From the NCBI GenBank assembly GCA_038231135.1, contig JBBRLX010000007.1, positions 74,812-138,811 of the forward strand: a stretch of DNA of 64,000 bases, read 5' to 3'. The notes under the pieces were generated by a model that was given only the letters and a program-made list of their open reading frames with translations, was not told where the DNA came from and ran no database searches. This DNA is from Candidatus Eiseniibacteriota bacterium. Lineage in GTDB: Bacteria; Eisenbacteria; RBG-16-71-46. Shown here in pieces: positions 2,341-8,987 of this stretch. Within the stretch, counting starts at the first letter, position 1. Every line of letters begins with the position of its first letter. Made by a program: the position numbers and the translations under genes.

Positions 2341-3662
2341 CAGCGGTGGATCCGCAGCGGGCGGACGCGAAGCTGCTGCAGGTCCTCACTGCTGGGACTG
2401 GGCACGAGCGGGAAGCGGCCGGCGACATGGAGCCGGAGCAGGCAGCGCACCACCTCGGGGTCGAACTGCGTGCCGGCGCCACGCTCCAGCTCGTCGAGCG
2501 CCTCGGACAGCTCGAGCGCGCGCCGGTACGGACGGTCGGAGGTCATGGCGTCGAACGCGTCCGAGACGTTGAGGATGCGCGCGCCGACCGGGACGTCCTC
2601 GGCGCGGAGCCCGTAGGGATAGCCCTTGCCGTCCGGACGTTCGTGGTGGGCGCGGATGATCTCGGACGACTTGTGCAGCGCGCGCACGCGCTTCACGATC
2701 TCGGCACCGGCGCCGGGGTGGCCGCGCAGCGTGCGCTGCTCCTCGTGCGACAGCGCGCCCGCCTTCTGGAGGATCACCTGGTGCTGCGGGCCGATCTTGC
2801 CGAGGTCGTGGACCAGCGCCGCGTACTCGATCTCCTCGACCTCGCCCTCGCGCAGCCCGAGTCCGCGCGCCAGCACCACGGCGTACTGGGCCACGCGCAT
2901 GGAATGGTGGCGGGTGTAGGGATCCACTTCCTCGAGCACCTCGGTGAGCGTGCGCACGAAGTCCTTGAGATCCGAGCGGATCTCGACGTACTGGCGGAAC
3001 GCGTGGCGGGCGACCCAGAACGGCACCGCGAACAGCACGAGCCCCCAGCGGCCCGAGCTGAACCAGGTGACGGTCGCGAGCGCGCCGAGCACGATGAACG
3101 AGCCATGGTGGAAGATGCCGTTCAGGTAGTTGCGCTCGAACACCCGCCCCGGACTCGGACCGTGGGCGATGCCGACGATCATCGACGCCAGCGTCGAATT
3201 GACCACGAAGTAGCTGACTCCCATCGCGAGCAGCGGCACGACCTGGCGGGACAGCGTGAACCCGGCGGCGCTGCCGCCGGCCGCACGCCACGCGAACCCC
3301 GCCGACAGCTGGGTGAGCACCGCGATCGCCATGTTGTGGGCCACGCGCACCGGCGACCGGCGCCGCACCAGCGCCTGGCCGGTGAACGTGCTCGCGAGGT
3401 CGACGAGCGCGGTCCACGCCGGCCCTAGGATGACGAGACACGGCAGATCGACGACGGCGCTGGCGGTGGCGTAGCCGCCGCCCGGCAACTCGACCGGCGT
3501 CAGCTCGTTGAGCAGCATGAGCAGGCCGGCGATCACGAGCACGGCGAGCGGCGGGCGGCCATCCCACGGCGCGAACCACAGCGCCGCGCCGGCCGCGAGC
3601 ACGACGCAGGTGTAGTAGGTGTAGAAGAGCCAGGGGCGCCGTGCGGCGAGCGTCTCGCTCAT
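2340..3662 (-). CDS. Multi-pass membrane HD-GYP domain phosphodiesterase
   Basis: About 230 aa hydrophobic N-terminal region with several TM segments; DPYTRHHS, HDLGKIG, HHERPDGKGYP, DAFDAMTSDRPYR. Confidence 0.92.
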   Translation of the reverse strand: MSETLAARRPWLFYTYYTCVVLAAGAALWFAPWDGRPPLAVLVIAGLLMLLNELTPVELPGGGYATASAVVDLPCLVILGPAWTALVDLASTFTGQALVRRRSPVRVAHNMAIAVLTQLSAGFAWRAAGGSAAGFTLSRQVVPLLAMGVSYFVVNSTLASMIVGIAHGPSPGRVFERNYLNGIFHHGSFIVLGALATVTWFSSGRWGLVLFAVPFWVARHAFRQYVEIRSDLKDFVRTLTEVLEEVDPYTRHHSMRVAQYAVVLARGLGLREGEVEEIEYAALVHDLGKIGPQHQVILQKAGALSHEEQRTLRGHPGAGAEIVKRVRALHKSSEIIRAHHERPDGKGYPYGLRAEDVPVGARILNVSDAFDAMTSDRPYRRALELSEALDELERGAGTQFDPEVVRCLLRLHVAGRFPLVPSPSSEDLQQLRVRPLRIHR

Positions 3663-3784
3663 GAACTCCGGCTCGGGATGGTGGGCTGTGGGATTGACAC
3701 GAGACCGACATCCGGTCGGAGGGCCGGTGTCGCTACGTCAAGAGTACTGCTCGTTGCGTATCTTCGAAACCAGGTAGCCTAACC

Positions 3785-3835
3785 CTACCAGCCGCCCTTA
3801 CCGAAGATATTGATCAGCTCCAGGATGAAGTCCAC
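3785..3835 (-). CDS. Small 16-aa peptide MDFILELINIFGKGGW (candidate signal peptide)
   Basis: GTG at 3835-3833, TAG at 3787-3785; AGGAGGT Shine-Dalgarno at 3850-3844 with 8-nt spacer; mostly G/C third positions; co-oriented with both neighbours. Confidence 0.75.
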   Translation of the reverse strand: MDFILELINIFGKGGW

Positions 3836-3949
3836 GAAACCCCACCTCCTTCAAGACAATTGCGTTGCGACCAGGGAGGAACGTATTCCTTACGAACGTT
3901 GGGTGGGATCCGCTTCGCTTTTCCGGATTTGATCGCTTCGCTTCGCCTC

Positions 3950-4765
3950 CTATGAAGATGTCGGTCTCAATACGTATTCGGTGGGTTCCTTGCCGGGCAA
4001 CCCACCCACAATCCGATTCAGCGCGGACAACGTGGCCAGCACCACGGCTTCCTGGGCATCTTGCTCCACCGCACAGGATCCGGCCAGCCTTTTCTGGGCC
4101 CGGTGGCCGAGCAACTCGACCACCACCAGCGCCACCTCGCCCCGGCCCACAGGCAGGATCTGTACCGAGTCGAGGCTGAACGCCACCTCGCCGTCCAGGA
4201 ACTCGAGCACGGTGGCGACCGTGGCCTGGGCCACGAGCTTGAGCGCACCATCGCGCGTGCCCCAGCCGGACGCGCTGCCCATGCGGGGCACGCCCTTCCA
4301 GCGCAGTTCCACTTGCGCCTGGGCGCGCCGGCCGGACACGTACAGGTTGACGCTCGAGAACCGGATCCGCTCGTCGGACTCCGCGTCGTCGGACTCCGCG
4401 TCGTGGGACTCCGCGTCGTGGGTCGTGGGCTCCTCGGTCACCTCGGGACGAATGTCCGTCTCATCCGTGGGACCGTTGTGCGGCGGCGCTGGAATCCCCT
4501 CGGGCGCCGGAACCGGCTCGGGGCCCGAGACACGGTCGGTGAACGCCACCGACACCACGCGAAAGTCGATCGGCCGCTGGAACCGCGTCAGCAGCAGCGT
4601 CTGGATGTCCCGCACGATCTGCTTCGCGGGGCGGCGGGACGACGAAACGACGTGGATTTCAGTGATGTCATCGCCCGCGGTCTGGATGTGGACGCCGTCG
4701 ATGTCGCGCAGCGAGCGAATCGCGGTTTCCGCGAGCGGGATCCAGGTGGAGTGTGTGGTATCCAA
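3950..4765 (-). CDS. Two-domain hypothetical protein (EIHV..KQIVRDI N-domain; acidic/Pro linker; C-domain ending AVVLATLSALNR)
   Basis: 271-aa ORF with globular composition, TTG start; C-terminal part resembles a LeuA-type allosteric fold by eye only. Confidence 0.8.
   Translation of the reverse strand: MDTTHSTWIPLAETAIRSLRDIDGVHIQTAGDDITEIHVVSSSRRPAKQIVRDIQTLLLTRFQRPIDFRVVSVAFTDRVSGPEPVPAPEGIPAPPHNGPTDETDIRPEVTEEPTTHDAESHDAESDDAESDERIRFSSVNLYVSGRRAQAQVELRWKGVPRMGSASGWGTRDGALKLVAQATVATVLEFLDGEVAFSLDSVQILPVGRGEVALVVVELLGHRAQKRLAGSCAVEQDAQEAVVLATLSALNRIVGGLPGKEPTEYVLRPTSS
4371..4422. repeat. 15-bp tandem repeat (about 3.5 copies) encoding (H/D)DAES in the linker
   Basis: tcgtcggactccgcg x2, tcgtgggactccgcg, partial tcgtggg. 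Confidence 0.9.
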
Positions 4766-4805
4766 TGGGCAGCCGGTCTCCAGGGGGGGGAGTTTTGGAG
4801 ACGCG

Positions 4806-4814
4806 ATTTTAGCA
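4806..4814 (-). promoter_or_regulatory. Extended -10 promoter element for the hypothetical/peptide/HD-GYP unit
   Basis: TGcTAAAAT on minus strand about 40 nt upstream of the 4765 start. Confidence 0.55.
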
Positions 4815-7893: not shown

Positions 7894-8898
7894 TCAACGG
7901 GTGCGCCGTACGGCGTATTCGATCGCGTGGTCGAGCGCGCGATGCGCGGCACGTGCGCCGGCCCGGCCGTTCGCCGCGGCCAGCTGGCCGTTCGCGAGCG
8001 TGCGGGCGCGCGCCGCGAACTCGTCGGCGCGGCGGCGGGCGTAGTCGAAGCCGCCCGCACGCTCCATGCGCTGCCGCAGGTCGTTCCACTGGCCCTTCGT
8101 CCACCGCGTACGCGACGCCAGCTTCACGAGCTGCCGGCGCTCGGCGCCGCCGGCGTTACGGAGCGCCGCGATCAGCGGCAGCGTCACCTTGCCCTCGGCG
8201 AGATCGGCACCCACCGGCTTGCCCGTGACCTCGGGATCGCCATGCCAGTCGAACAGGTCGTCCACGATCTGGAACGCGGTGCCGATCGCCTCGCCGAACG
8301 CCTTGAACCGCGCCCGCGCGCGCCGGTCCCTGCCACCGCCGTTCATGCTGCCGCCGATCTCGGTGGCGGCGCCGATCAGCGAGCTGGTCTTGGCGCGCAC
8401 CACCTCGAGGTACTGGTCCTCGGTCACGTCGAGGTCGCGCGCGTACTGCAGCTCCAGCGCCTCGCCGCACGACATGTCGGCCACCACGCGCGCCAGCACC
8501 TCCATCGCGATCTTCAAGTCGTGCTTCACGAGAATCGCCATCGACTGGGCGTACAGGTAGTCGCCCATGATGATCGCCATCTCGTCCGACCACAGGCCGT
8601 TCACCGTGGGATGGCCGCGCCGCAGCTCGCTCTGGTCGACCGAGTCGTCGTGGATCAGCGCTGCCGCGTGCACCATCTCGATCACGGTCGCGCACCGCAC
8701 CGCGTCGCGGTCGAGATGGCCGTTCAGCTTCGCCACCAGCAGCAGCAGCGTGGGCCGGAACTTCTTCCCGCGCGTCGCGAGCACGTGGCCGCCGACCTGG
8801 TTCAGGATCGGAATCGGCGTCTGGAACGATTCCCGCAGCAACTGCTCGACCTGCATGAGCTGGCGCCGTACGGGTTTCTGGACCGCGGTCATCGACAT
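7894..8898 (-). CDS. Trans-polyprenyl diphosphate synthase (IspB/HepT-like)
   Basis: GKKFRP, FARM LIHDDSVD..RRG, KT, SARM FQIVDDLFD, GKPVGADLAEGKVTLP. Confidence 0.93.
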   Translation of the reverse strand: MSMTAVQKPVRRQLMQVEQLLRESFQTPIPILNQVGGHVLATRGKKFRPTLLLLVAKLNGHLDRDAVRCATVIEMVHAAALIHDDSVDQSELRRGHPTVNGLWSDEMAIIMGDYLYAQSMAILVKHDLKIAMEVLARVVADMSCGEALELQYARDLDVTEDQYLEVVRAKTSSLIGAATEIGGSMNGGGRDRRARARFKAFGEAIGTAFQIVDDLFDWHGDPEVTGKPVGADLAEGKVTLPLIAALRNAGGAERRQLVKLASRTRWTKGQWNDLRQRMERAGGFDYARRRADEFAARARTLANGQLAAANGRAGARAAHRALDHAIEYAVRRTR

Positions 8899-8957
8899 GG
8901 AATGGGCTTTCCAGACGGAGAGGAGGGGTTGCCGAGCACACGAAAGCGAAGCGATGG

Positions 8958-8987
8958 AGGATACGGGGGGCATGCGAAAAGTGTCAA
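8958..8987 (-). promoter_or_regulatory. Sigma70-type promoter for the polyprenyl synthase-rsfS-argS unit
   Basis: TTGACA-18 nt-TATCCT on minus strand. Confidence 0.65.

Follow-up and report, generated by a model that had tools for sequence, protein, structure and literature searches.

We wanted to know what is encoded directly upstream of a membrane receptor gene of Candidatus Eiseniibacteriota bacterium, and whether the product of this short stretch has anything to do with the receptor. The locus lies in a window of 64,000 nucleotides (GCA_038231135.1, contig JBBRLX010000007.1, positions 74,812 to 138,811), which is the whole stretch of DNA that was analysed. The original prediction described an unannotated amphipathic micropeptide with a strong ribosome-binding site (RBS), highly translated, associated with the membrane and possibly made in excess of the receptor. 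Features of the locus are collected in Table 1.

Table 1. Positions of the features around the small open reading frame (sORF) in the 64,000-nucleotide window.
Feature	Position	Strand	Remarks
Membrane receptor, 440 aa	2340..3662	-	MASE9-like sensor and HD-GYP; HD, GYP and RxYR motifs intact
P1 3' arm	3700..3713	-	closes a predicted RNA domain of ~270 nt around the sORF
sORF, 16 aa	3785..3835	-	16 codons, MDFILELINIFGKGGW, start GTG, stop TAG; acidic amphipathic leader (residues 1-11) and conserved core G-K-G-G-W
Shine-Dalgarno (SD) AAGGAGGT	3844..3851	-	AGGAGGT at 3850-3844; spacing to GTG 8 nt; near-invariant in alignment A4
CCCACC anti-SD	3902..3907	-	predicted SD pairing; 88% of cells paired
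Two AGCG-N-AGCG repeats	3934-3942 and 3911-3919	-	may bind protein or form a tandem G-A internal loop
P1 extension, short helix	3946-3951 with 3718-3722	-	predicted pairing
UP, 271 aa	3950..4765	-	small alpha/beta N-domain, disordered linker, LeuA/CimA regulatory-type C-domain
P1 5' arm	3956..3969	-	overlaps last codons of UP here; non-coding DNA in other lineages
Extended -10-like site TGCTAAAAT	4806..4814	-	upstream of UP; candidate operon promoter, read from sequence

The sORF with its full AGGAGGT, 8-nt spacing and GTG start was confirmed on the minus strand. A strong SD alone is not rare: AGGAGGT followed by a start codon and an ORF of 6-45 aa gave 35 rows in the own genome, and 4 of 106 small ORFs led by AGGAGG there have a terminal Trp. 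Since short ORFs with an upstream AGGAGGT are so frequent here, the case for the sORF rests on relatives. Conservation of RBS, frame and Trp, which had been proposed as a check, was borne out, as the sORF was found in 20 of the 20 first loci of relatives. When 44 distinct Eisenbacteria copies were compared over their final 11 codons, identity at the three codon positions was 0.66/0.86/0.53 and dN/dS, another proposed check, was approximately 0.35, a value of coding selection; these copies were selected on the last four residues, so the conservation statistics are circular for that part. Stop codons are swapped among the 44 copies (TAA/TAG/TGA = 34/8/2). The comparison supports a coding-type, selected gene with kept RBS, start, frame and stop. 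The gene has escaped annotation, and the record of the cultured Natranaerobius thermophilus is no exception. In that record (L212) the receptor, at 2807-4098, is split into two annotated ORFs, and the unannotated peptide gene lies at ~2676-2762; UP, the RNA and DUF5317 are present there too. A soil metatranscriptome (run X1) contained a contig of 358 nt over 3723-4081, 96% identical with 14 differences, of which the sole change within the ORF was TAG to TAA; this is one low-depth contig from a small share of a single RNA run and no proof of transcription, and assembled contigs give neither transcript ends nor levels.

The RBS of the sORF is far stronger than that of the receptor. Predicted anti-SD pairing was -13.4 vs -5.4 kcal/mol at the window locus, with medians of -13.0 vs -3.8 kcal/mol over 59 Eisenbacteria loci. 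A predicted pairing of the SD with the upstream CCCACC leaves high translation unproven. Covariation of this pairing is weak (two-sided change in 1 of 7 pairs), and the SD unpairing probability (medians 0.24 and 0.16 vs 0.34 and 0.33 overall) is weak evidence, since G-rich stretches pair easily.

The amphipathic N-terminal helix of the original prediction was upheld: the first 11-12 residues have a hydrophobic moment of 0.45-0.58 with a peak at 100 degrees, matched by 1-2% of 10,000 shuffles. GKGGW, which had been read as a flexible tail, turned out to be the conserved core; it is the helix that varies. The core consensus in Eisenbacteria is G-[KR]-x-G-W, with G-K-x-G-W in the window. One peptide (L017) has 8 residues only, MKMGKAGW; those of L048, L053 and L108 have three GK[AG]GW cores each with diverged acidic spacers between them, and in another family a GGH[AT]WW core occurs twice in L064 and three times in L069. 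Such multiplication of the core in two lineages would be unneeded by a peptide that acts only at its stop codon. Among the copies compared, the core and not the leader is shown to be the invariant part.

The 125 loci analysed gave 120 distinct peptides of 8-50 aa. The N-terminus is hydrophobic or amphipathic in nearly all of them. A Trp is among the final four residues of 108, and it is the last residue of 78. The tail is not uniform across phyla. Outside Eisenbacteria the precursor begins with basic residues, continues with a hydrophobic stretch and G-G-A, and closes with an aromatic/basic tail of 3-8 aa, so that it reads like a signal peptide; the Eisenbacteria form in the window has an acidic leader and no canonical signal peptide. 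Membrane association of the peptide is something we only infer. A complex prediction of the 50-aa three-core L053 peptide with its own sensor domain scored 0.01; it was run without controls and was counted neither way.

We observed that the peptide gene accompanies the receptor gene. All pairing counts come from genomes that are kin and partly incomplete, and unpublished genomes (G026, G463, G480, G510, G550, G582, G610, G636, G688 and G701) enter tallies only. Among Eisenbacteria receptor loci beside UP, 68 of 69 had the sORF (67 by rule, L048 by hand); L065 (genome G038) had none, nor any peptide by the genome-wide pattern. UP loci with at least 3 kb of downstream sequence and no receptor lacked the sORF in 21 of 22 cases, and L093 (G066) has the sORF beside UP despite the lack of a receptor. 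A GTDB scan with the UP N-domain gave 80 loci. Outside Eisenbacteria, the receptor loci came from Bacillota, Actinomycetota, Armatimonadota and Gemmatimonadota, and in 51 of 51 a small hydrophobic ORF separates UP from the receptor; the rule detected 47 of these, and 4 were identified by hand. For Bacillota loci selected by the UP gene and having a receptor, the sORF was found in 23 of 25, and none by rule in 2. Upstream of control ORFs the rule fired in 23 of 300 cases and the strict rule in 2 of 300.

A further sample consisted of 30 Actinomycetota loci selected by Pfam MASE9 alone. All first-in-operon MASE9-HD-GYP genes in it had the sORF (19/19, three of which appear to repeat loci from the earlier set), as did two MASE9 histidine kinases and one locus with an output domain uncalled by the script. 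We did not observe an adjacent peptide for 5 long MASE9 proteins (~730-770 aa), one of them without upstream sequence, and three further loci show second genes of a tandem only. Genome G101 has a MASE9-like kinase and gave no match to the peptide pattern. The counts of 68/69 and 51/51 support a functional link of the peptide to the downstream receptor.

To our knowledge, MASE9 is a widespread sensor whose ligand is not known. Of 21 aligned members, 19 had a match to profile PF20972 with E no higher than 0.1, the best being 2.6e-8, and the window receptor has all of the HD, HHExxDGxGYP and RxY[KR] motifs. The sensor model (pLDDT 91) had ECF S-components (RibU, FolT, BioY, CbiM/NikM) as best Foldseek matches, with TM by target 0.55-0.70 and probability 1.0, at 9-16% identity and with no E below 0.001. 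The model thus predicts an ECF S-component-like fold, fused here to a signalling enzyme instead of belonging to a transporter. ECF S-components bind small ligands inside the membrane. Among proteins of the MASE9-HD-GYP type are TM1467 and Streptomyces HdgA/HdgB (10.1101/2021.11.05.467447, PMC6205966); the window's own N-terminal domain differs in lying below the Pfam cut-off (E 0.032), and a Nonomuraea HdgA/B-like tandem likewise has an upstream peptide gene. Galperin and Chou proposed intramembrane ligand binding for MASE9, with no ligand named in the text consulted (10.1101/2021.11.05.467447), and the hdgA/hdgB mutants of Streptomyces are described as having no developmental phenotype, which was ascribed to missing activating signals (PMC6205966). 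The word 'peptide' is absent from the main text of both papers. In Coriobacteriia-like loci (L128-L189) there are also tandem receptors, the second with a degenerate HD-GYP, as for hdgA/hdgB.

Past the receptor, the window has purM and then a sigma-54 activator (268-1281). Outside Eisenbacteria, DUF5317 followed the receptor in 21 of 21 loci tested (L116-L189 range); position and length were the criteria by which these 21 had been picked out of 82 downstream ORFs. We found DUF5317 in 0 of 151 Eisenbacteria genomes, and no exporter or protease gene beside the window sORF. DUF5317 has two invariant Asp within motifs recalling signal peptidase II, with both Asp in register. Kinship with signal peptidase II was rejected as more than a lead (probability 3.5%, score 21.4 vs a block-shuffled maximum of 22.1). 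No PDB match and no other family in Atlas was obtained for DUF5317; in one Atlas cluster it is fused to an MFS transporter.

The peptide gene also occurs elsewhere on the chromosome. A genome-wide pattern found it there in 29 of 46 Eisenbacteria genomes tested (family f10 19/24, f13 5/6, f11 4/5, f9 1/1) and gave no match in f15 (0/8), f4 (0/1) and f17 (0/1); the reversed pattern gave 2 matches in 46 genomes. A first, loose pattern had matched every genome in a set of 29, and its sole use was to reveal three unlinked copies. The f10 receptor lies after pfkB, without UP, RNA motif or sORF at the locus (16/16 loci). Loss of the peptide in f10 was considered and was overturned by the unlinked gene. 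In the f10 sensors most conserved residues are retained and positions 165, 178 and 222 differ, so these sensors do not look degenerate. The only family without a MASE9-like match is f15 (0/12), where co-absence of peptide and sensor is a single lineage and one event. Families f9, f11, f13 and G066 keep the peptide without an HD-GYP orthologue, so the partner there is a paralogous sensor or something else; f9, f11 and f13 have paralogue-level sensors only, and those opened were histidine kinases. The own genome has a paralogous MASE9 histidine kinase directly after an epimerase-like gene (L110, G000:C36, 2115-3554), which has no adjacent peptide gene and is a possible second receptor.

Duplicated genes were found as well. 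Whole-gene tandem copies occur twofold in L252, L261 and L263 and threefold, with synonymous differences, in L254, and diverged tandem pairs in L280-L282 (the three f10 loci opened). The latter directly precede a Lon protease gene (Pfam checked for L282). Six low-GC, probably related loci have TGnTATAAT between the peptide and receptor genes (read by eye). Sigma-54-like TGGCAC-N5-[CA]TGC precedes the unlinked peptide gene at three f10 loci and one f11 locus; these sites were read by eye, and a strict regex found none. In L280-L283 and L192-L207, sigma-54-like sites stand before unlinked peptide genes and f10 receptors; with a sigma-54 activator such as that of the window, they could form a feedback loop. 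Taken together, pairing, unlinking, duplication and core repetition make a trans-acting product the simplest account, and the peptide likely acts in trans and not as a leader peptide.

The sORF of the window is enclosed by a long-range helix, P1, of 13-14 bp. Of its 13 pairs, 6 show two-sided changes among 31 Eisenbacteria and 11 do so among 30 loci of other phyla; these counts come from 61 of the 125 loci, chosen for a visible helix, and are inflated by kinship. The covariation score was reached by 0 of 500 shuffles, and G-U pairs occur. The best long helix beat all 30 shuffles in 67 of 125 loci. The window RNA alone was no more stable than shuffles (z -0.91), and the case for P1 therefore rests on covariation. 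In L063, L098 and L103 the end of UP is without the arm, and a copy of the P1 arm lies in non-coding DNA. A run of at least 4 T follows P1 in 17 of 59 Eisenbacteria loci and 13 of 44 others. P1 could mark a processed or terminated mini-transcript, and it may add cis control at the window locus. Scans for sigma-70 promoters and terminators at the locus found nothing. A search of window 3500-4200 against Rfam found no match up to E 5, and at the gathering score the element was without a match in 6 further loci.

Three further observations concern this RNA and its surroundings. In L128-L189, GAGAAGAC/GTCTTCTC pairing beside the SD seems, by eye, mutually exclusive with an AGCGG-loop hairpin. At window 4773-4782 (minus strand), just before the UP start, GGAGACCGGC resembles the P1 5' arm and is a possible alternative partner of the 3' arm or chance. 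The raiA RNA motif (RF03072) lies 3-5 kb upstream in two Actinomycetota loci (L149:242-478, L187:1836-2145).

The covarying RNA was found only in genomes with the UP gene, and UP occurs without an adjacent RNA motif in f11, f13 and f15. Loci with at least 3 AGCG were all in genomes with UP (8/8), and motif-less Actinomycetota loci were mostly in genomes without a UP match (9/11). In f10, UP matched in 0 of 32 and the AGCG motif was likewise absent; the genome-wide AGCG pattern missed the window copy (gap limit), so zero counts are lower bounds. The AGCG-N-AGCG pair of the window is the single such pair in its genome. Upstream of the 19 Actinomycetota sORF loci, UP was lacking within 1.3 kb in 11, present in 6, and sequence was lacking in 2; most of the 11 are without the RNA motif, and so is Nonomuraea. 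The C-domain of UP has the LeuA/CimA regulatory fold by Foldseek (E 9e-5 to 3e-4), with weaker matches of UP to dsRNA-binding domains and of its N-domain to a ring-building motif. The UP profile matched nothing below E 0.1 among PDB sequences, and only unnamed clusters in Atlas. Its disordered linker is encoded with three 18-nt tandem repeats (window 4353-4422). We regard the RNA wrapper as a new structured-RNA candidate and UP as its candidate binding protein; together they likely serve as accessory control of peptide output.

From these data we consider it probable, with only modest confidence, that the sORF product is a pheromone-like precursor and that its core is a ligand of the MASE9-like sensor in the HD-GYP enzyme encoded next to it. 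The hydrophobic leader would bring the precursor to the membrane. The C-terminal core (G-K-x-G-W here) would be released and bound in the S-component-like pocket of the sensor, and this binding would likely alter c-di-GMP breakdown by the HD-GYP enzyme. As an accessory layer, the AGCG repeats beside the anti-SD helix may be a binding site of UP, which would thereby control the amount of peptide; in lineages without the RNA, a sigma-54-like promoter stands before the peptide gene instead. We infer each of these steps, namely translation, membrane targeting, core release, pocket binding and the sign of the effect. The weak point of the signal model is export and processing in Eisenbacteria, which are without DUF5317.

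The lack of a dedicated protease or exporter in Eisenbacteria would be explained if the peptide were an unprocessed small membrane subunit or modulator that stays beside the sensor in the same cell, in the style of MgrB or KdpF. Such a subunit would also account for pairing with the sensor, action in trans and the hydrophobic or amphipathic N-terminus of nearly all 120 peptides. However, an acidic helix of 11 residues and the 8-aa L017 form cannot span a membrane; the ~18-20 hydrophobic residues of a single-pass helix are absent from the window peptide, and longer forms elsewhere are borderline. Repeated cores with acidic spacers and tandem genes fit a dose-dependent ligand better, and we judge a resident modulator to be rather unlikely. 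UP itself, or another cytoplasmic protein, might be the target, with the MASE9 link being shared regulation only. The ligand-binding type of fold in UP points that way, as does the retention of UP and peptide without an HD-GYP orthologue in G066, f11 and f13; yet f10 has peptide and receptor with no UP match, f15 keeps UP (12/12) without the peptide, and most motif-less Actinomycetota loci are in genomes without a UP match, which leaves a cytoplasmic target improbable.

The position of the ORF inside the covarying helix would suit a cis-acting leader peptide, whose translation or stalling at Trp and stop would open P1 and thereby regulate the receptor gene. In the other phyla the 3' arm begins, in the median, 10 nt past the sORF stop, and the runs of T that follow P1 in 13 of 44 of those loci would also fit. 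But in each of the 59 Eisenbacteria loci at least 21 nt (median 51) separate the end of P1 from the receptor start, which is left uncovered, and elsewhere P1 comes within 20 nt of that start in only 11 of 44 loci. Moreover, a leader is always in cis upstream of the gene it controls, and this gene is unlinked in 29 of 46 genomes, kept without the RNA, found in tandem and, in places, separated from the receptor by a promoter-like site; control of this kind is quite improbable. The strong SD, predicted to be sequestered, the long-range pairing of the ends and the small hydrophobic product also resemble mRNAs of type I toxins, silenced by the anti-SD and by 5'-3' end pairing. We hardly believe in a toxin, as the gene stays in one stable chromosomal setting linked to a sensor, peptides of 8 aa and peptides with several cores exist, several lineages lost the RNA wrapper and kept the gene, and no antitoxin was matched in Rfam.

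The pheromone-like reading can be compared with known systems. In agr, the AgrD precursor is processed by AgrB/MroQ and perceived by the AgrC receptor, and it has a Cys/Ser ring core and a charged/acidic tail. The present module shares with it a short precursor, a hydrophobic or amphipathic leader, a short conserved core and a gene beside a polytopic membrane sensor. In contrast to agr, it has no Cys/Ser core for a lactone ring, no acidic C-terminal tail and no AgrB-like or AgrC neighbour; its neighbours are HD-GYP, purM or DUF5317, its receptor is MASE9-like with HD-GYP output (sometimes a kinase), and multi-core forms exist. Peptide quorum sensing of the agr type is described for Gram-positives in the text consulted of PMC10196373, 10.1101/2021.12.29.473670 and PMC12312760, whereas the module occurs also in Eisenbacteria, Armatimonadota and Gemmatimonadota.

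The hydrophobic N-terminus and the Trp near the C-terminus are likewise found in SHP/ComS-XIP, Bacillus ComX and Phr, small hydrophobic pheromones from unannotated genes of 15-50 codons. Unlike these, the module has no adjacent Rgg/ComR/Rap regulator or ComQ-type gene. A polyprenyl synthetase (7894-8973) lies 4 kb from the sORF, and the models that fit it best are of the housekeeping type. Leader and attenuator peptides, and translational coupling by long-range helices, also place a small ORF in structured RNA upstream of a gene, with a Trp codon by the stop in the former; the module differs in that its gene is kept unlinked and duplicated and in the uncovered receptor start of Eisenbacteria. 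Small proteins of C. difficile under c-di-GMP riboswitches are a different system, and MASE9 is unmentioned in the text consulted (PMC13724677). No description of a MASE9 peptide partner or of this RNA was found in a search of mostly open-access literature, at the level of abstracts and main-text passages; Figure S5 of 10.1101/2021.11.05.467447 and large catalogues of small proteins or RNA motifs might contain them.

A wider picture can be put forward tentatively, and we hold it to be possible rather than probable. It would be a cross-phylum peptide quorum sensing wired to c-di-GMP, in which a precursor, sometimes with several cores, is cut and released, and its Trp/basic core is caught by an S-component-derived sensor. 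DUF5317 would be the two-aspartate membrane peptidase in most phyla, and output would be set by a UP/AGCG protein-gated RNA switch or by a sigma-54 promoter.

In summary, a genetically encoded core of 5 residues makes the question of the MASE9 ligand testable with synthetic peptides. If the proposed reading is true, a peptide signal would pass straight into c-di-GMP turnover, bypassing a transcription regulator, in a system that spans at least 5 phyla and has been missed by annotation.
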